From: Candidatus Babeliales bacterium | GTDB taxonomy: Bacteria; Babelota; Babeliae; Babelales; JANWKD01 | NCBI GenBank assembly: GCA_963762115.1 | Contig: CAVXJH010000003.1 | Location: 416,001-480,000, forward strand | Direction: 5' to 3' | Length of the DNA stretch: 64,000 nt | In this document: piece after piece, positions 6,775 through 43,744 of the stretch | How positions within the stretch are numbered: position 1 is the first letter of the stretch | Layout of the letters: every line of letters starts with the position of its first letter | Position numbers and translations under genes: made by a program | Notes under the pieces: generated by a model | Seen by the model: the letters and a program-made list of their open reading frames with translations, nothing else | Database searches by the model: none | Told to the model about the DNA's origin: nothing

Positions 6775-8236
6775 CTACTCTTTACCCACATTTTTACTAT
6801 AATTAACGAGATACAGAGTTAATATATCAAAAAAAGAAAAGTAAAAAATGATTAAAGAATTGTGGGCAGCAAATGAGACTAATCGTATGTCATTAAAAGA
6901 TAAACGCAGAAATGAAAGAGTTAGAATACTTCTAGAGGCCGTTGCCGATAGCCCATCAGCAAGCATTTTACAAGCTTGCAACGGAGAAAATGCACAAGCA
7001 AAAGGTGCTTATCGTTTTCTTGCCACAACAGAAATTGATGAACAAGATATTCTCGAAGGACATTATCAAGCAACCGTCGAAAGAGCTGAAAATGCTGATG
7101 GAAAAGTCATTATTGTTAGCGATGGCATGGATGCATCTTTTAAAAATCTTAAAAAAACTTCAGGGTTAGGAACTCTATCTAATACAAAAAGTTCACTTGG
7201 AATAAAAGTTCAAAATACGTATGTATTTAGTGAAAATTTTATTCCATTAGGGCTAATAAATCAAAAGTATTGGATACGCAATAAAGAAGATTTTGGCAAA
7301 AAAAAACATAAGCTAAGGTTGCCTACAAAGGAAAAAGAATCTTATAATTGGATTGAATCAATTTATCAAATAGAAAAAAAGCTTCCTATAAATAAAAGCT
7401 ATTTATTTATAGGTGATGGTGGTGCCGATATTTATGATTTATTAACAGCAGAAAGGCGTGTAAATAGCGATTTACTCATTCATCTTGTGCAAAATAGAAA
7501 TATACAGAACGAAGAAGAGCGTCTCTTTGAATTGCTGGAAAAACAATCAGTATTAGGCGTTATAACGAAAGAATTAGAACGTACAAAAACTCATTCTAAG
7601 AGAACTGCAAAGTTAGCGATTAGAGTCAAAGAAGTCGAAATTTGTTCTCCTTTAAATCGAAAAAATGAAAAATTACCAACCATACATTTAACAGCGATTT
7701 ATGTGCAAGAAATAGAATATGACAACTCAGTAAATGATCCAATAGTATGGCGACTTATTACTACGATTAAAGTTCAATCATTGGAAGAAGCTGAAAAGCT
7801 TATTGCCCTTTACTCAAAACGTTGGCTCATTGAACGCTATCATTATATTTTAAAAGAAGGTTGTCGCATAGAAAAATTTCAAATGGAATCGGTTGATAAC
7901 CTAAAAAGAACCTTGGCTGTTTACTCAATTGCTGCCTGGCGTTTAATTTATATCACTTATCTTGCAAGAATTAAACCTGATGCCCCATGTAATTTAATTC
8001 TTACAACCGATGAAGCTGATGCGTTATATTGCACGCATCATAAAACTCTTACATTGCCCCCCAAATCTTTTTCTGTTAAAGAAGCAACTCAAATGATAGC
8101 AAAATTAGGAGGTTTTCTTGGCAGGAAAAACGATAAAGATCCTGGTGCAAAAGTTTTGTGGCAGGGATTATTTCGGCTAGAAGCCATTACACAAGCTTAT
8201 CTTTTATTTAAAGAACTAAATGTGGGTAAAGAGTAG
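6775..8236 (+). mobile_element. IS4-family (IS50/Tn5-like) insertion sequence, 1462 bp
   Basis: Perfect 19-bp TIRs ctactctttacccacattt (6775..6793 / 8218..8236); 10-bp TSD catatacgcg at 6765..6774 and 8237..8246. Confidence 0.97.
6848..8236 (+). CDS. IS4-family DDE transposase
   Basis: AYRFL, KESYNW, GDGGADIY, YREK motif YSKRWLIERYHYILK, LGGFLGRKND.DPG...LW.G; stop codon is the last 3 nt of the right TIR. Confidence 0.96.
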   Translation: MIKELWAANETNRMSLKDKRRNERVRILLEAVADSPSASILQACNGENAQAKGAYRFLATTEIDEQDILEGHYQATVERAENADGKVIIVSDGMDASFKNLKKTSGLGTLSNTKSSLGIKVQNTYVFSENFIPLGLINQKYWIRNKEDFGKKKHKLRLPTKEKESYNWIESIYQIEKKLPINKSYLFIGDGGADIYDLLTAERRVNSDLLIHLVQNRNIQNEEERLFELLEKQSVLGVITKELERTKTHSKRTAKLAIRVKEVEICSPLNRKNEKLPTIHLTAIYVQEIEYDNSVNDPIVWRLITTIKVQSLEEAEKLIALYSKRWLIERYHYILKEGCRIEKFQMESVDNLKRTLAVYSIAAWRLIYITYLARIKPDAPCNLILTTDEADALYCTHHKTLTLPPKSFSVKEATQMIAKLGGFLGRKNDKDPGAKVLWQGLFRLEAITQAYLLFKELNVGKE

Positions 8237-11663: not shown

Positions 11664-11691
11664 TTGACTTTTATCAATAATATTTTATAAT
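11664..11691 (+). promoter_or_regulatory. sigma70-like promoter for the 11.7-16.5 kb array
   Basis: TTGACT-16-TATAAT. Confidence 0.5.
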
Positions 11692-11740: not shown

Positions 11741-12700
11741 ATGAAATCACTATTTCTTAAAGGTTTAAACCTGTTATTTGCAGTTGCACTCTTTGCAACA
11801 ATAAATACATATGCAATGGAACAACAAGAAGAAGTTGCAGAGCCTATTTCTGCTCAAGCGCAAACTGATAATGTTATTGAACGTATGTATAATGCTTTTA
11901 GCAAACAACTTGATGAAAGATTTCCAGAAGCACCTACAAATTTTTATGAAGCAATTGTACGCCTTCAAAGCATTGCAAAATTACTTGAAAAATCTGAGAT
12001 TGAACTCTGTGAAAATTTCAACGCTACACAAGAAAGTTGTATAATAAATGGCATTGAACAACCATATCATATGCTTCATCCAATTTTTAAACATTGGTTT
12101 CAAAGCGCTTGCAACAAAACTCTTCTTGAACATACAAAATCTATTGAAGCAATTGATCTAATATTTGATTTATTAAGTAAAATAACAACAGAGAACAATA
12201 TCGAAAATTACAAAAAAGCAATTGAATCTTTGCCCCATGTTATTGCTGAATATATCAAAGAAGAATTTATTGAAATGCATGGCTGGAAATATAAAAATAA
12301 AGGCTGGCTGACTGACTTTAAACCTCAAATGACTTTTGATGATAATGAAAACATGATAAATGTCGAATTTATTAAAGATAATTATCATGTTCGTGGATAT
12401 TATTTGAAAGCAATCGATCAACCAATAATCGTTGTAATTAATTTAAATAATGGAACATATCCCTATATGGCGTTTAACGCTCATGCAACATTACCACCAA
12501 TGCTTTCAGACCTTTTGAACAATTTTTTTCATATTCCATTACCAGAAAGCGGTGTTTACCCTCCACTTTGGGAAAAACCAACATTTGAACAATCATTAAA
12601 AAATTGTATCCAAGAAAACGCTAAAACATTAATAGGAAAAATAAAAAGACAAATCCAATCAACATTTTATTCTTTTAGCGAATTTATGGATCGATTTTAA
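11741..12700 (+). CDS. Secreted putative effector, domain-B family
   Basis: A|MEQ leader; PTNFYEAIVRLQ...QPYHMLHPIFKHWF...PPLWEKPTF shared with next gene. Confidence 0.8.
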   Translation: MKSLFLKGLNLLFAVALFATINTYAMEQQEEVAEPISAQAQTDNVIERMYNAFSKQLDERFPEAPTNFYEAIVRLQSIAKLLEKSEIELCENFNATQESCIINGIEQPYHMLHPIFKHWFQSACNKTLLEHTKSIEAIDLIFDLLSKITTENNIENYKKAIESLPHVIAEYIKEEFIEMHGWKYKNKGWLTDFKPQMTFDDNENMINVEFIKDNYHVRGYYLKAIDQPIIVVINLNNGTYPYMAFNAHATLPPMLSDLLNNFFHIPLPESGVYPPLWEKPTFEQSLKNCIQENAKTLIGKIKRQIQSTFYSFSEFMDRF

Positions 12701-12749: not shown

Positions 12750-13712
12750 ATGTATATGAAATCACTATTTTTTAAAAGGTTAACACCTTTATTACTCACC
12801 GTTACACTCTTTGCAGCAATAAATATACAAGCAATGGAACAAGAAGAAGGACAAGAACCTTTTTCTGCTCAAGAACAAAGCGCCAATGCCGATAATGTTG
12901 TTGAACGTATATATAATGCTTTTAGCAAACAACTTGACGAAAGATTCACAGAATCACCTACAAATTTTCGCGAAGCAATTGCACAACTCAGATGTATTGC
13001 ACGATTACTTGAAGAATCTGAAGTTGAACTTCTTGAAGATTTCAACGTTACACAAGAAAACTGCACAATACATGGTATTAAACAACCATATCATATGCTT
13101 CATCCAATTTTTAAACATTGGTTCAAAAATGCTTACGAAAAAATCCTTCTTGAACATCCAAAAGTTATTGAAGCTGCTGATGTAATTCTTGAAAGATTAA
13201 GTGAAAATGTTTCTCATGAAAATATGAATAATTATGATAAAGCAATTACAAATCTGCCAAAAATTGTTACTGAATGCATCCAAGATCAATTCATTGATAT
13301 ACATGGTTGGCCACACAATATAAAACCCTCAATCACATTCAATGATTCGGGAGTAAAGCACATTTCATTTCTTCAAGATAATTATGTTTTTGAAGGATTT
13401 GGAACTGGTTGGATACATAAAACACGGTCACAACAAAGTCATTTAGAAAATATCAATAATAATCCTTCAGCATGGCTTAGCCGCAGCTCTACATTGGTTG
13501 ATGGAAAATTAGCAACAGGAATTGCATACGAATTAGGATTAGCTGAAGAAATAAACGGAGATATTAAACCATTAAAAGCCTCTAATGATAAAGAAGAACC
13601 AAGTGGTGTATTACCACCTCTTTGGGAAAAACCAACATTTAAAGAAGCTCTTAAAAAACGAGCTGAAGAAAATAAATTAAAGAAAAATAGAAATAGATGT
13701 ATTATAAGTTAA
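12750..13712 (+). CDS. Secreted putative effector, domain-B family, C-terminal CaaX (CIIS)
   Basis: Paralog of 11741; ends KLKKNRNRCIIS*. Confidence 0.8.
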   Translation: MYMKSLFFKRLTPLLLTVTLFAAINIQAMEQEEGQEPFSAQEQSANADNVVERIYNAFSKQLDERFTESPTNFREAIAQLRCIARLLEESEVELLEDFNVTQENCTIHGIKQPYHMLHPIFKHWFKNAYEKILLEHPKVIEAADVILERLSENVSHENMNNYDKAITNLPKIVTECIQDQFIDIHGWPHNIKPSITFNDSGVKHISFLQDNYVFEGFGTGWIHKTRSQQSHLENINNNPSAWLSRSSTLVDGKLATGIAYELGLAEEINGDIKPLKASNDKEEPSGVLPPLWEKPTFKEALKKRAEENKLKKNRNRCIIS

Positions 13713-13755
13713 AATCCATCTAGCATTTTTTAATCATATAGAAGGGACAATTTTT

Positions 13756-15624
13756 ATGAAATTATATATTAAACAGGGCAAAAAGGCCTTATTACTTTCT
13801 CTCGTATTATTTACCGGAATCACACTCAATGCAATGGAACAACAAGATAAGCCTGAATATAGTTCTTTCGTTGATAATCTAGAGATAGTACTAAAAAGAA
13901 ATAACAAACAACTCTGCGCAAAGCTTCTTCATCATTTCAATGAAGAAATTGAACAAAAAGAAGTAATTGAACAAGTTTCTATAGTTGCAAATTTAATACC
14001 ATATGCTGCACAAAAAAGTAATCAAGTAACCTCTGTACTTTGCAATGCACTGGTAAAAATTGTCCAGGCTAACGACTCATTAGCCTCAATAATTAAAGAA
14101 AAGATAAATCCTGTTATTCACACTTTAGTAGCACACCAAAGAAAAAAGGCTTTAAAAAAACTTCTTTGTATATTTGCTGATAACACTGAATCGGAAGAAT
14201 ATACAAGGATTAATCAAATTATACAAAGTAAGTTACAAAAAGGATTAACCGTATTTAATCCAGAAGAAAATTCTACCACAAAAGAAGCACTAAAATATAT
14301 TTATTCTACTATTGATTTGATACAAGAATCGATATCAAACCCACAACGCACAGTAATATTCTGCAATATGTTGCTAGGTCATTTTATTAGCCAAGAAAAA
14401 AATTTCAGAACAGACATGCAAAAAATTATTTCTCCAATCATTCATCCTCTAATTCAAGCTAATAACATTGAAGCATTAAAACAAATTCGATATATTTTCT
14501 CTGATTTTAAAGATAAAGATACACAAGAATACAAAATCATACATAAAGCAATTAAAAAATATAATTCAGTAATAAAATCCAAGCAAAATGAACAGCTTGC
14601 AAAATTATCAGAAAAAAGTCCTCATGAAAAAGTTGCAACTGAAGATAACGATCAAGAATTAAACTTTGCTCGCACTGTTAGTACAAGGGAAACTACCAAT
14701 CCAAGTGCGACTACTTTTGAAAATCCAATTGATTTTATGAGATTACAAAAGGAATCTGCTGAACTTACTGGTGTTCCGCTCTCAGATGAAGAAGCTGATG
14801 CATTTTTGATTAGAATTTTAGAAGAACACATCGACAATCACCCTTCTTGCAAGAAAATACCAAAAACATTTTATGAAGCTTTAGTGCGTCTTCAATGCAT
14901 TGCTCGTTTGTTTGATAAAACTCGCTTTTATATAGGTGATATGGAAATTACAGAGAATGATTGTGTGATTAATAACTTAGTTCTTCCTCATCATATGACA
15001 AATAAAAGATTTAAACAGTGTTTTGATATTGTCAAAAATCGAACCGTACTTCTTTCCCATGAAAAATCTGTTGAAGCAATAAATATCATTCTTGAAAGCA
15101 TCAGTAAAAAAGTAAAACCAGAAACGGCAGCCGAATATATAAAAGCAATTAATTGTTTACCCTCTTTTTTTTCTCATAACATTAAAAAGCAATTTAATAG
15201 AATGATGTATCAAGAATTATATAATATTCCTTTGATAACAACGGGTTTAAATTTTATTGGTTCGTTTGTTAATTATGACATAGTAAAAACCAAAATTAAA
15301 CCTTATGAAGTTATCTTCGATGAAGAAGACAGGATAACATCATTCAAATTTAAAAAATCTGGAATTAACGTTGAAATATCTAACATACATTGGATAGGAC
15401 AGGATCCTTGGGGTAAAGCAGTTATGGGAAGTGAAACATGTTATGGTACTGATCTAAACAATTTACACACTCTTCTAAATAGAAAATTTGAGGGACGAGC
15501 AACATATTTTGATGAAAACGACTTTATTTGGCGACTAAATTTTGAAGAAATGTTACAAAAACGTGCTCATGAAAATGAAAACAAGACACAAGAAAAGCAA
15601 CAATCAAAATGCATTATAAGTTAG
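13756..15624 (+). CDS. Secreted mosaic putative effector (2x domain A + domain B), C-terminal CaaX (CIIS)
   Basis: Internal repeat (CNAL/CNML...INPVIH/ISPIIH...EEY/QEY); PKTFYEALVRLQCIARL; ends QQSKCIIS*. Confidence 0.8.
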   Translation: MKLYIKQGKKALLLSLVLFTGITLNAMEQQDKPEYSSFVDNLEIVLKRNNKQLCAKLLHHFNEEIEQKEVIEQVSIVANLIPYAAQKSNQVTSVLCNALVKIVQANDSLASIIKEKINPVIHTLVAHQRKKALKKLLCIFADNTESEEYTRINQIIQSKLQKGLTVFNPEENSTTKEALKYIYSTIDLIQESISNPQRTVIFCNMLLGHFISQEKNFRTDMQKIISPIIHPLIQANNIEALKQIRYIFSDFKDKDTQEYKIIHKAIKKYNSVIKSKQNEQLAKLSEKSPHEKVATEDNDQELNFARTVSTRETTNPSATTFENPIDFMRLQKESAELTGVPLSDEEADAFLIRILEEHIDNHPSCKKIPKTFYEALVRLQCIARLFDKTRFYIGDMEITENDCVINNLVLPHHMTNKRFKQCFDIVKNRTVLLSHEKSVEAINIILESISKKVKPETAAEYIKAINCLPSFFSHNIKKQFNRMMYQELYNIPLITTGLNFIGSFVNYDIVKTKIKPYEVIFDEEDRITSFKFKKSGINVEISNIHWIGQDPWGKAVMGSETCYGTDLNNLHTLLNRKFEGRATYFDENDFIWRLNFEEMLQKRAHENENKTQEKQQSKCIIS

Positions 15625-15662
15625 AATATATATTTTTTAAACCATATAGAAGGGACAATTCT

Positions 15663-16499
15663 ATGAAATTATTTATAAAACAAGGTAAAAACACCTTATT
15701 ACTTTCTCTCGTATTATTTACCGGAATCACGCTTCAGGCAATGGAACAACAAGGGAGCGAATACGGCTATTTAGTTGATACTCTTGATGCAGCAATGAAA
15801 TCATCAAATCCCACTGCTTGCAAAGATCTTTTCGAAAGCTTTAGTAATGATCTTAACCAAAAAGATCCAATCGAACGAGCTGCTATTGTTGTTGGCTTAA
15901 CACAAGAAGCAGCAGCGAAAAAAAATGAACAATTAACAGGGGTATTTTGCAATGCACTCGTTAGTATTTATAACACTAGCCCCGGAATAACAGAAGCAAT
16001 GCAAGAAATAATAAGCCCTGTCATTCGTCCTTTGGCAGAGCACAAACAAATATCAGCATTGGGAAAAATTCACTGTATTTTTTCTAACAATATTGAAAGC
16101 GAAGAATATAGACAAATTGATGAAGCAATTAAAAATAAATTGCACGGTAATACAACAGTAAATACTGATGAAGATGAAGCAATTGCAAGATTATTACAAG
16201 AAGAAGTTCAAAGTCCTGATGACAATTTTGCACCTAAAGATAACGATCTCAACAGGGCACTAGCATTAAGTTTACAAACAGGCAGACAAGATGACGAACA
16301 AGCAGAATTAGAAAAAGCACTGCGTGCAAGCAGATTTACCAACCCTAGCGCACCCGTACTAACAGACATCGAAGAAGATGATGCAGTATTACGTATTGCA
16401 CTCGCAGAAAGCTTACAAGTAAACACACCAAATACCAACTCAAATCCAAGCATCTGGAACAATCTCCGCAACATATTTTTAGACGGCTTTGGTAGTTAA
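15663..16499 (+). CDS. Secreted putative effector, domain A + tandem ubiquitin-interacting motifs
   Basis: ATG 15663 after AGAAGGGA; DNDLNRALALSLQ, DEQAELEKALRASR, EEDDAVLRIALAESLQ. Confidence 0.8.
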   Translation: MKLFIKQGKNTLLLSLVLFTGITLQAMEQQGSEYGYLVDTLDAAMKSSNPTACKDLFESFSNDLNQKDPIERAAIVVGLTQEAAAKKNEQLTGVFCNALVSIYNTSPGITEAMQEIISPVIRPLAEHKQISALGKIHCIFSNNIESEEYRQIDEAIKNKLHGNTTVNTDEDEAIARLLQEEVQSPDDNFAPKDNDLNRALALSLQTGRQDDEQAELEKALRASRFTNPSAPVLTDIEEDDAVLRIALAESLQVNTPNTNSNPSIWNNLRNIFLDGFGS

Positions 16500-37700: not shown

Positions 37701-38882
37701 TTAACAGATAACACGAACAACTTCTTCCAAGCTAATTATGCCGGCTTGTAGTTTTTCTCGTGCATCATGCAATAAAGGCTGCAAACCATCAGCAAGTGCC
37801 TGTTCTTGAATCGCCTCAAAAAGAGGATTGCGCACAATAAGTGTACGTAACGCGTTACTCATAATTAACAATTCAAAAATACCAATGCGCCCTTTATACC
37901 CAAGATTAAAACAGTGTGAACAGCCAAGACCTTTATAGAGTTTTTGCATATTCACCGCCAATCGTTCTAGTATTTTTAATTCTTGCTCATTTGGTTCTTG
38001 TTCAACACGACAATGTGTACAAATCTTGCGCACTAAACGTTGGGCAAGAACACCTGTCAATGAACTATTAATCAAGAATGGTTCAATGGCCATATCCATT
38101 AAGCGCATAATGGTAGATGATGCATCATTGGTATGCAATGTGCTTAACACCAAGTGACCAGTTAGCGATGCTTCAATAGCAATACGCGCTGTTTGCTTAT
38201 CACGAATTTCACCAATCATGGCAATATCAGGATCTTGTCGCAATAATGCGCGAATACCTCGTTCAAAAGTAAATCCTGCTTCAGGATGAATTTGGCCCTG
38301 CGTTATACCATCAATGTTATATTCAACAGGATCTTCTAGCGTGATAATATTTTTTTCAGCAGAATGTAATGCTGATAGCGTTGCATATAAGGTAGTCGTT
38401 TTTCCTGAACCGGTTGGCCCCGTTACTAAAAAAAATCCCTGCGCGCGAGCAATAAGATTTTTAAATTGTTCTAATATTTTTGGTTGTAACCCTAATTTTT
38501 CTAAAACAATAGTGTGATTTGTGCGATCCAAAATTCTAATAACTATTTTTTCGCCATAAATTGCAGGAAAGGTGGAAACGCGCAAATCAACCGATTTATC
38601 AGCAAGTTGTATGCGAAATTTTCCATCCTGAGGAATTCTTTTTTCTGCAATGTTGTTGTGAGCAAGAATCTTAATGCGCGAAATCACTTGTGCCGCACTC
38701 ATTGCTTCTATCATGGGCTGATCATAAAGAGTACCATCAATGCGATAGCGAACCCTCAATCCCTTTTGCGTTGATTCTAAATGAATATCAGATGCATCAC
38801 GTTCAATTGCTAACGCAATAATATCATTAACACGATCAATAATTGATAAGGCAATAAAAGCTTGATTTTCGCGCTCCAACAT
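37701..38882 (-). CDS. GspE/PilB-family secretion/pilus ATPase lacking the N-terminal domain
   Basis: ASDIHLE, EKRIPQDG, GPTGSGKTTT, LEDPVE, LRQDPD, STLHTND, CTHC/CSHC zinc motif. Confidence 0.95.
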   Translation of the reverse strand: MLERENQAFIALSIIDRVNDIIALAIERDASDIHLESTQKGLRVRYRIDGTLYDQPMIEAMSAAQVISRIKILAHNNIAEKRIPQDGKFRIQLADKSVDLRVSTFPAIYGEKIVIRILDRTNHTIVLEKLGLQPKILEQFKNLIARAQGFFLVTGPTGSGKTTTLYATLSALHSAEKNIITLEDPVEYNIDGITQGQIHPEAGFTFERGIRALLRQDPDIAMIGEIRDKQTARIAIEASLTGHLVLSTLHTNDASSTIMRLMDMAIEPFLINSSLTGVLAQRLVRKICTHCRVEQEPNEQELKILERLAVNMQKLYKGLGCSHCFNLGYKGRIGIFELLIMSNALRTLIVRNPLFEAIQEQALADGLQPLLHDAREKLQAGIISLEEVVRVIC

Positions 38883-41975: not shown

Positions 41976-42848
41976 TTAATAAACCCATTGAAAAAACCTA
42001 CTCCAACGAACACGTTGCCAAAAATCAATTGGATGTTTGATTAAATCAAGAATCCACCATGATTCATGGCTATCAATTGACCACAAGCGCACAATAATTT
42101 TGCCATGAATCAATTTACCGTCAAGTGGTCCCCAAAAACGCGAATCATAGCTTCCCAACCGATTATCACCCATCGCCCAATATTGATTTGAATCCAACGT
42201 GATATCAAAAATATCAACATTCCTACCATATTGATCAAAGGAGGGAGTTTGAGGTAACCGTAACCAATCTTGATCATATGTCTTTGACCAACGCTTCCCA
42301 AGCTCAACGTCATACTCATCCATTCGATAAAAAGGCTGATCATTAAATGAAAAATTTTCATCGTAGGAAGAATGCAATAGGCATTTATTATTATAAACAG
42401 CAATAAGAGGATATTTATTTAAATAAGGTTCATCTAATTTTTCCCCATTACGATAAATAACCGGCTTTCCATCTTCAATTACTCCTTTAATATGATCACC
42501 AGGAAGACCAATCACTCGTTTAGTCCAATTAGAAGGTCCCCAAACATAACGTTGAAAAACGTCCGTAAAATAGTTATGAGAATAATTAAAATTGGGATCA
42601 TTAAAAGTAATAATATCGCCATACTTGATTGGTCGAAATAAATATGAAAATTTATCAGCAAAAAAACGTTCACCAACTAACATGGTTGTTTCCATTGAAC
42701 CCGTTGGCACTTGATACAGACCATAAAAATAAGTGCGAATAAAAAAGGCAATTGGCACAATAATAAGAAAAGATTCTATATATTGAGCAATTTTTGATTT
42801 ATGAGGACGTTTAAGCCAAACACGAAACTTATTAATAAATTCTAACAT
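41976..42848 (-). CDS. lepB: Signal peptidase I, copy 2
   Basis: VPTGSMETT, WTKRVIGLPGD, MGDNRLGSYDSRFWG. Confidence 0.96.
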   Translation of the reverse strand: MLEFINKFRVWLKRPHKSKIAQYIESFLIIVPIAFFIRTYFYGLYQVPTGSMETTMLVGERFFADKFSYLFRPIKYGDIITFNDPNFNYSHNYFTDVFQRYVWGPSNWTKRVIGLPGDHIKGVIEDGKPVIYRNGEKLDEPYLNKYPLIAVYNNKCLLHSSYDENFSFNDQPFYRMDEYDVELGKRWSKTYDQDWLRLPQTPSFDQYGRNVDIFDITLDSNQYWAMGDNRLGSYDSRFWGPLDGKLIHGKIIVRLWSIDSHESWWILDLIKHPIDFWQRVRWSRFFQWVY

Positions 42849-42871: not shown

Positions 42872-43744
42872 TCAAGATACTCTTTGAAGAAACCGATTCC
42901 ATCGAATACGTTTCCAAAAATCAAGGGGATGTTTGATCAAATCAAAAATAAGCCATGATTCATTGCTATCAATTGACCATATTCTAAAGACAATCTTTCC
43001 ATGTATCAATTTACCATCAAATGGACCAAGAAATCGTGAATCTTTGCTTCCCAGTCGATTATCACCCATACACCAATATTGATTTGGCGCCAAGTGAACA
43101 TCAAAAATATCAACATTTCTTCCATAGTGATCAAACGAAGGCGTTCCCGGCATTAATAACCATTCTTGGCCATACATATCTGACCAACGTTTTCCTAATT
43201 CCGCCTCATAGTCATTAAAACTATAAAATGGTTGATCACTATATGAATAAGCTGGGTCATAAGAACGTGGCGCTTGGATGCGATTATTTTTATATAACGT
43301 AATAAGAGGAAATTTGTTTAAATATGGTTCATCTAATTTTACATCATTGCGATATACAACCGGTTTTCCATCTTCAATAACGCCTCTAATATGATCACCT
43401 GGAATACCAATAACACGCTTTGTCCAATTAGTAGGACCCCATACATAGCGCTGAAACAAATCAACCCAATAATTATCAGAATATATAAAAGTAGGATCAT
43501 TAAGAGCAATAATATCGCCATGCTTTATTGGTATAAATAAGGGCGTAAATTTATCTGAAAAAAAACCCTCCCCAACCAATATCGTTGTTTCCATTGAACC
43601 CGTCGGTACTTTATAAAGTCCATAACCAACCGTTCTAATAAGAAATGCAATCGGCAAAATAATAATGAAGGTTTCAAGATATTCTGCAACGATAGATTTA
43701 TTCGGTCGTTTTCGCCATTGATGAAATTTTTGAACGAGTGTCAT
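42872..43744 (-). CDS. lepB: Signal peptidase I, copy 1
   Basis: VPTGSMETT, WTKRVIGIPGD, MGDNRLGSKDSRFLG. Confidence 0.96.
   Translation of the reverse strand: MTLVQKFHQWRKRPNKSIVAEYLETFIIILPIAFLIRTVGYGLYKVPTGSMETTILVGEGFFSDKFTPLFIPIKHGDIIALNDPTFIYSDNYWVDLFQRYVWGPTNWTKRVIGIPGDHIRGVIEDGKPVVYRNDVKLDEPYLNKFPLITLYKNNRIQAPRSYDPAYSYSDQPFYSFNDYEAELGKRWSDMYGQEWLLMPGTPSFDHYGRNVDIFDVHLAPNQYWCMGDNRLGSKDSRFLGPFDGKLIHGKIVFRIWSIDSNESWLIFDLIKHPLDFWKRIRWNRFLQRVS

Follow-up and report, generated by a model that had tools for sequence, protein, structure and literature searches.

Ras-type CaaX tails on leader-bearing proteins of a Babelota bacterium, predicted substrates of a host farnesyltransferase

Host prenylation of bacterial effectors is already known from Legionella: the host farnesylates the CaaX box of AnkB (a cysteine, two aliphatic residues and a last residue X), which is needed for membrane anchoring, and CaaX proteins have been reported in 20 pathogens with type III to type VII secretion systems (PMC2916131). 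The Legionella Pels number seven in one strain and at least 11 across four, out of about 368 effectors (PMC13081727). In the window analysed here, a 64,000-nucleotide stretch of contig CAVXJH010000003.1 from a Candidatus Babeliales genome (G000 below), two adjacent plus-strand genes, 12750..13712 and 13756..15624, encode proteins that begin with an N-terminal hydrophobic leader and end in CIIS-stop, as both translation and codons confirm. A sequence-only reading of the window had taken these tails for farnesyltransferase boxes on Sec-signal proteins. What appears to be new in the pattern is the lineage, Babelota, and its occurrence on Sec-leader proteins: a literature search with little subscription coverage returned no report of host prenylation for either, and 'prenyl' is absent from the main texts, as extracted, of two studies of the group (PMC6561590, PMC4776705). 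The Babelota papers listed by the search likewise contain neither 'prenyl' nor 'farnesyl'.

The likeness to AnkB and the Pels lies in a terminal CaaX box on proteins of a protist parasite and in ankyrin cargo, found in both sets. The Legionella proteins, however, are injected by the Dot/Icm system from a vacuole, and Dot/Icm substrates are not known to have a cleavable N-terminal signal peptide, whereas those of G000 carry N-terminal leaders; also unlike Legionella are the 16–23 CaaX proteins in a 1.5-Mb genome and the lack of any detected F-box in the two window proteins. Because the delivery route differs, the G000 set should not be filed with the Legionella prenylated effectors. Host prenylation has so far been shown for needle-injected effectors such as these; by analogy, the G000 set would work alike and differ in its route.

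Across G000, CaaX tails appear to be a real, selected feature of some 20 mostly unrelated, likely exported proteins, and we consider it quite probable that these are effectors of a protist parasite whose tails are farnesylated by the host enzyme and likely serve as membrane anchors. The sequence-only reading had proposed a genome-wide count of CaaX ends among Met-leader proteins as a check, and the count bears it out. It covers 1298 open reading frames (ORFs) of at least 100 residues, taken by a simple longest-ORF rule; a leader rule (hydrophobic stretch, small residue, Met, then E, D, Q, N, H or K) selects 245 of them, and all Sec-signal calls here come from such hydropathy-and-pattern rules rather than from a SignalP-type predictor. 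Cysteine stands fourth from the end (−4) in 44 of the 1298 ORFs, as against 12–31 at the other 19 positions from −1 to −20, and it does so in 20 of 245 leader ORFs versus 24 of 1053 others (Fisher p = 4e-5). The strict CaaX motif ends 16 leader ORFs, where truncating the same proteins by 1–60 residues gives an expectation of 0.99, an enrichment of about 16-fold; among the 1053 others it ends 7. The enrichment is robust across four motif definitions (11 vs 0.44 and 13 vs 0.79 with the alternatives), and other positions of the leader ORFs show no comparable excess.

These counts bear directly on the idea of neutral tails, ends that arose by chance in an AT-rich genome and were copied further when genes duplicated. 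Duplication has indeed played a part, as the two window tails go back to one event and the three ankyrin genes ending in CIIS are paralogs, and the box is easily lost. However, BLAST groups the 23 strict ORFs into 18 families, and 13 families remain when only the 16 leader ORFs are counted, against about one expected; unrelated genes spell the box with different codons; homologs at 26–58% identity keep the cysteine and vary within the rules of the enzyme; and the excess is confined to the terminal position. Enrichment, family count and motif variants have largely refuted neutrality, and we regard it as extremely unlikely.

The last residue of the box points to the kind of enzyme. Among the 23 strict ORFs X is S in 12, Q in eight, N in two and T in one, never L, and ends of the geranylgeranyltransferase type (C-x-[ILV]-L) or the Rab type (CC or CxC) are found in none of the 245 leader ORFs, which argues for a farnesyltransferase rather than a geranylgeranyl-type enzyme. 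The preference goes with the cysteine, S or Q being the last residue of 14 of the 20 leader ORFs with Cys at −4 versus 34 of the 225 without. Both window proteins have the sequence features of a farnesyltransferase substrate: cysteine fourth from the C-terminus, an aliphatic second 'a' residue (a2), and at X an S, which belongs to the S/Q/M/A/C class, instead of L. The claim that CIIS is such a substrate holds up well, as it is the box of yeast Ras2, which depends on farnesyltransferase alone (PMC11152559), while CIIC, which recurs among homologs below, is that of Ras1 (PMC6517510). As a measure independent of our strict motif, all 44 Cys-4 ends were scored from File S4 of a published screen of all 8000 CXXX sequences, with a cut-off of 3 (PMC10320760). 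CIIS scores 4.07 (19.6 on a second score), 18 of the 20 leader tails pass, and the median Ras-reporter value is 12.2 for leader tails versus 3.1 for the 24 other Cys-4 ends (p = 0.01).

The enzyme itself would come from the host. A profile search found no prenyltransferase alpha repeat in G000, and 150 related genomes held no credible alpha subunit, the sole match over the cut-off lying on a 1,014-bp contig; the beta-subunit searches matched no control genome and are given no weight. On that contig (L318, G072:C42, 1-1014) the alpha-subunit-like gene fills a sequence that starts with CCCCAAA repeats, which gives it the look of a ciliate's gene-sized chromosome binned along with the bacterium, maybe that of a host. 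Prenyltransferases are cytosolic (PMC9141697).

Two explanations dispense with a host farnesyltransferase. The terminal cysteine might serve another chemistry, such as a periplasmic disulfide, metal binding or palmitoylation only; the proteins would cross the periplasm and hold further cysteines (4 and 11 in the two CaaX proteins), and the CLGK ends of two homologs keep the cysteine and fail the farnesylation score. Such chemistry, however, would not fix the cysteine at exactly −4 or select an aliphatic a2 and S or Q at X, and we grant it next to no credence. Alternatively, the box could be a bacterial sorting signal read by the cell's own Rce1-like protease, in the manner of MYXO-CTERM. Cys-containing C-terminal signals with such proteases have been described (bioRxiv 10.1101/2023.06.07.544157), they too sit on many unrelated exported proteins, and G000 encodes a single membrane protein with an Rce1-like domain (PF02517; 1128 residues; L192, C7:138571-141957), oriented divergently to a leader gene that ends in CIVQ, at a distance of about 600 bp. 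Known signals of this class, by contrast, have a transmembrane helix and a basic cluster after the cysteine, whereas here the stop follows three residues later; PF02517 was also matched in 11 of 14 control genomes, for one of 23 CaaX genes to have the protease as a neighbour is nothing remarkable, and the a2 and X preferences fit a eukaryotic farnesyltransferase, with no bacterial prenyltransferase subunit found. We judge a sorting signal very unlikely.

A further alternative accepts the host enzyme and gives the tails another purpose: they would be farnesylated or bound mainly as Ras/Rho decoys or as handles for prenyl-binding proteins, not as anchors. Consistent with this, several CaaX ORFs are only 121–137 residues long and have no Pfam domain, 13756 and several others lack a second membrane signal, and CIIS is over-used, in seven signal-bearing ORFs. 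Anchoring is favoured by basic residues, which are enriched before the box (3.06 K/R per ten residues in leader ORFs versus 1.50; p = 2e-4), and by C5:51022, whose terminal cysteine run CCCILN fits palmitoylation plus prenylation, of which such a run is typical. Many cargoes, moreover, are large repeat proteins (5 ankyrin, 3 WD40 and 1 Skp1/POZ among 22 CaaX proteins scanned), which suits localisation as in Legionella AnkB and the Pels. We think a decoy role unlikely and prefer host farnesylation for membrane anchoring.

For anchoring, the two window proteins differ. The sequence-only reading had named a polybasic stretch ahead of a CaaX box as the membrane-targeting design of K-Ras4B, a comparison that stands for one of them. 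In the 12750 protein (C-terminus KLKKNRNRCIIS-stop; codons TGT ATT ATA AGT TAA), a polybasic stretch at 13653..13712 puts 8 K/R and 2 E into the 15 residues before the cysteine, followed by CIIS-stop at 13698-13712. The 13756 protein ends QQSKCIIS-stop at 15610..15624 (TGC ATT ATA AGT TAG) and has no polybasic patch, with 3 K balanced by 3 E. The likeness to Ras is therefore one of identical boxes (CIIS in Ras2, CIIC in Ras1) and, for 12750, of a basic stretch just upstream; unlike Ras proteins, the window proteins have no GTPase domain, 13756 lacks the patch, and neither has an adjacent palmitoylated cysteine as in Ras2.

At their other end, both proteins show the features of Sec export and signal peptidase I cleavage by inspection and by rule: a basic N-region, a hydrophobic core, a small residue at −1 and no lipobox, which was not found within the first 45 residues of the window leader proteins. 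The predicted leader of 12750 (12750..12833, a rule-based call) ends INIQA before MEQ. In the leader proteins of G000 at large, the residue after the junction Met is E in 133, Q in 27, N in 21 and D in 17 of 290, as against Leu or Ile inside proteins. Proteins that start Met-Glu, Met-Gln, Met-Asn or Met-Asp are substrates of the eukaryotic N-acetyltransferase NatB, and leader cleavage that leaves such starts is possibly a mimicry at the other protein end. As to the seven strict ORFs classed as non-leader, at least two were missed by the rule or by gene calling, one has no visible leader and one may not be a gene. C3:380015, in that class, does have a leader; for L177 (C3:333365-334725, ending CLIS) the leader is encoded upstream, in an overlapping frame of its own, and its relative in the same-genus genome G001 is a single ORF ending CIIS.

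The two genes belong to a plus-strand array of four (11741..12700, 12750..13712, 13756..15624 and 15663..16499), with gyrB on one side and tilS on the other, and by inspection the leaders of all four proteins share a basic start, a hydrophobic core and an A/ME junction. The first gene encodes a 319-residue paralog with a leader (11741-11815), a helical domain A common to the next two genes and a Cys-free tail ending SEFMDRF; that 11741 lacks the CIIS tail had been correctly noted before. The 12750 protein (320 residues, or 318 from the second Met) has leader, domain A, a small beta region, the basic tail and CIIS. At 622 residues, the 13756 protein is a chimera of leader (13756-13833), two copies of the helical domain B that it shares with 15663, domain A from about 14752, and CIIS. 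The fourth gene (278 residues, without CaaX) has leader, domain B and UIM-like repeats, with a UIM match of E = 3e-4, about the Pfam cut-off; its N-terminal domain is the one common to 13756, and its counterpart in G001 has more UIM-like repeats.

DNA alignment reveals a duplicated cassette at 13698..13833, made up of the CIIS-stop, a spacer with the ribosome-binding-site-like AGAAGGGA and the next leader, with a second copy at about 15610-15740. The 'two' tails reported earlier are hence both present and not independent: since the stop region, spacer and next leader are one duplicated cassette and the proteins share a domain, they count once. A candidate sigma-70-like promoter ahead of the array (11664..11691, plus strand; 11 of 12 consensus positions, the best of 29 sites) is likely the start of a single transcript for the array, as inferred from its position and match; the 29 sites are not above chance (25.5 in shuffles). 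A Tn5/IS4-type transposase lies directly before gyrB at 6848-8236 of the window and is not at the same place in G001.

The family of the window proteins is narrow. Its profile was matched in 6 of 201 genomes, three of them weakly (G109, G119, G193), and a metagenome scan found no loci for it. Among the 14 outside members with a complete-looking end (fragments and near-copies P0007, P0014, P0015, P0017, P0019-P0021 and P0023 being excluded), a passing box is kept in six, spread over several branches: CGIS, CIVS, CIIS and three times CIIC. The paralog within G000 that is fused to WD40 ends CTIG. For two further CaaX genes of G000, the relatives in G001 are boxed as well (CSFQ/CSLQ and CLIS/CIIS); one CaaX singleton has no relative in 4 other genomes of the family. 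A 17-row tree shows the CaaX members dispersed rather than grouped, with unsupported deep nodes, so that gains and losses of the box cannot be ordered.

Members of the family without the box have longer and more aromatic tails, and the SEFMDRF-type tail of 11741 recurs in G001. We tried these tails as amphipathic membrane helices and rejected the idea, as their hydrophobic moments (0.47–0.62) do not stand out from those of the genome at large (75th percentile 0.58). Where it occurs, the box appears to be retained, with variation that stays inside the rules of the enzyme, yet it is dispensable, and we propose that the tail is a swappable address module, with paralogs carrying either the box or another tail. 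A family paralog directly after gyrB in G001 (L010, 11512-12411) closes with 12 residues copied from the C-terminus of GyrB, a further sign of tail swapping by recombination in the array. A comparable case is AnkB-Paris, where alleles of one effector family either carry the CaaX tail or do without it; there, a frameshift creates a di-lysine motif that was shown to work (PMC5506055), whereas any function of the alternative tails here, which are longer and more aromatic, is putative.

Some other Babelota genomes show the same trend. In G001 (828 kb) the strict box ends 5 of 350 signal-bearing ORFs versus 0.87 expected, one box being known beforehand, and none of the remaining 367; G035, selected after pattern matches and sampled over 200 kb, has it on 3 of 117 versus 0.30 expected. 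First samples of seven genomes gave 10 in 1325 ORFs versus 3.2 expected, including one likely spurious ORF, while the negative control, 80 loci from a GyrB scan that matched other phyla only, at 48–60% identity, gave 2 in 990 versus 1.75. In an exact scan for CII[SCT]-stop, 6 of 9 matches in G000 ended a long ORF, as did 8 of 23 in 20 regions chosen from high-count genomes. The 15 CII[SCT] proteins from relatives comprise three WD40 proteins, four ankyrin proteins (one with a RING finger) and eight without a Pfam match. Broader DNA patterns were less informative: a tighter C-a-a-X-stop pattern gave 224 matches in 121 genomes versus 207 when scrambled, no useful bulk difference, and a loose one (151 genomes) was swamped by chance matches and not used. 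Related genomes are not independent samples, and the trait appears to occur in several Babelota families, patchily and strongly only in some lineages. Separately, G035 has 7 signal-bearing ORFs out of 117 with cysteine at −3, and an 'other hydrophobic' class in G105 has 6 of 58, possibly as a shortened Cxx box.

Several of our own results weigh against farnesylated, host-directed tails, or limit how far they reach. The strict motif was fixed after sight of the list, which makes its p-value of 1e-14 optimistic, and the unselected Cys-4 test is the weaker one. Of the 24 non-leader Cys-4 ends, 15 also pass the screen cut-off, because yeast farnesyltransferase is broad. Among homologs, 8 of the 14 have no usable box (two CLGK, which fails the screen, and six other tails), all three G001 paralogs are without it, and cysteine is at −4 in none of eight distant outside relatives, most of which have a WD40-like C-terminal region; in G001, the relatives of C5:50552 and of the NADAR protein are without a box as well. 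No strict box was found in 200-kb samples of G003, G020 and G078, the last of these (0 of 65 signal-bearing ORFs) having been selected after pattern matches. In 30 loci of four other families, CII[SCT]-stop ended a long ORF in 1 of 31 matches, the same as a scrambled control (1 of 30). Finally, if the organism is confined to a vacuole, proteins exported by Sec would not come into contact with a cytosolic enzyme. Taken together, the earlier interpretation is supported with qualifications: the two tails go back to a single duplication, only 12750 fits the K-Ras4B analogy, conservation of the box in homologs is partial and the box dispensable, and farnesylation and export are predictions.

The route out of the cell has to be sought in the genome, which is 1.53 Mb long, has 34% GC and is 95% complete. 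It encodes ATP/ADP translocases, two secretins and many ankyrin and WD40 proteins; translocases, two gspD copies and ankyrin/WD40 proteins are listed as features of TM6/Dependentiae (PMC4776705), and from this gene content we infer that G000 belongs to Babelota. Many signal peptides are likewise a shared trait of Babelota secreted proteins (PMC6561590, PMC4776705). The two secretins (918 and 939 residues) lie in one cluster (C6:205033-213982) with PilM/GspL-like neighbours, named from appearance only. There are two GspE/PilB-type ATPases, one at 37701-38882 of the window (minus strand), and two tandem signal peptidase I (Peptidase_S26) paralogs at 41976-42848 and 42872-43744 (minus strand), one of which might serve the Met-leader class. 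Type III or flagellar export gates, VirB4, the type VI sheath and TolC were not found in this 95% complete genome by searches that matched their controls; DotI/IcmL was not found either, in a search that matched no control. The view that the motif sits on leader proteins rather than on type IV substrates agrees with this, the Dot/Icm part being without a working control. In the related Chromulinavorax (C. destructans), the cells exit the food vacuole, shed vesicles and replicate in the host cytoplasm (PMC6561590); a bacterium free in the cytoplasm would need no more than Sec together with a secretin or vesicles.

What the window proteins do is less clear from their domains. Neither CaaX protein has a Pfam match above cut-off or a usable ESM Atlas match. 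A model of domain A (mean predicted local distance difference test (pLDDT) score 79) has no Foldseek match at E = 0.001 or better, the best reaching Z = 6.2 at a root-mean-square deviation (rmsd) of 4.5 over 99 aligned residues, and a single-sequence model of domain B (pLDDT 68) gives generic helical-repeat matches (best Z = 10.7, rmsd 7.2, 207 aligned). The two models name no function and show no new fold. An F-box, suggested by an 'LP' helix motif, found no support in Pfam: none appears among the 25 families listed, out of 58 that 25 family members match at E up to 1. Relatives join domain A to WD40 propellers, and 15663 joins domain B to UIM-like repeats, from which we would guess, weakly, that the window proteins could be membrane-tethered adaptors, perhaps near ubiquitin traffic.

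We envision a stepwise path that begins with the observed combination of leader, terminal CaaX box and farnesyltransferase-type X. The proteins would be exported by Sec, cut at the A/ME junction by one of the two signal peptidase I paralogs, and taken across the outer membrane by a type II-like secretin or in vesicles. In the host, the cysteine is predicted to be farnesylated, followed by aaX trimming and methylation; the basic patch of the 12750 protein would then direct it to acidic membranes, whereas 13756, with no second signal, is predicted to bind endomembranes more weakly. As the weakest step, the helical domains would act there as protein-binding adaptors. We hold with about even confidence the full needle-free version, in which some 20 unrelated leader proteins would pass by Sec and a type II-like secretin into the protist cytosol, start with Met-Glu and be led to host membranes by a swappable Ras-type CaaX cassette.

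If true, the G000 proteins would be the first host-prenylated set known from bacteria to take the Sec route. Cultured Babelota isolates are few, with four reported (PMC12172432), and no genetics for the group was found in the literature; farnesyltransferase inhibitors and clickable isoprenoids would be a cheap handle, as they act from the host side, so that the bacterium need not be altered. Up to 44% of Babelota proteins have signal peptides (PMC6561590). A selected, eukaryote-only modification signal on leader proteins would be sequence evidence that at least some of them arrive in the cytosol of the host, and implies that they get there by way of Sec and the two secretins. The uneven spread of the box across families may track lineages that live free in the cytoplasm, and, if our interpretation is right, the tails would provide the first evidence of this kind that the hundreds of leader proteins of Babelota include some that reach the cytosol of their hosts.

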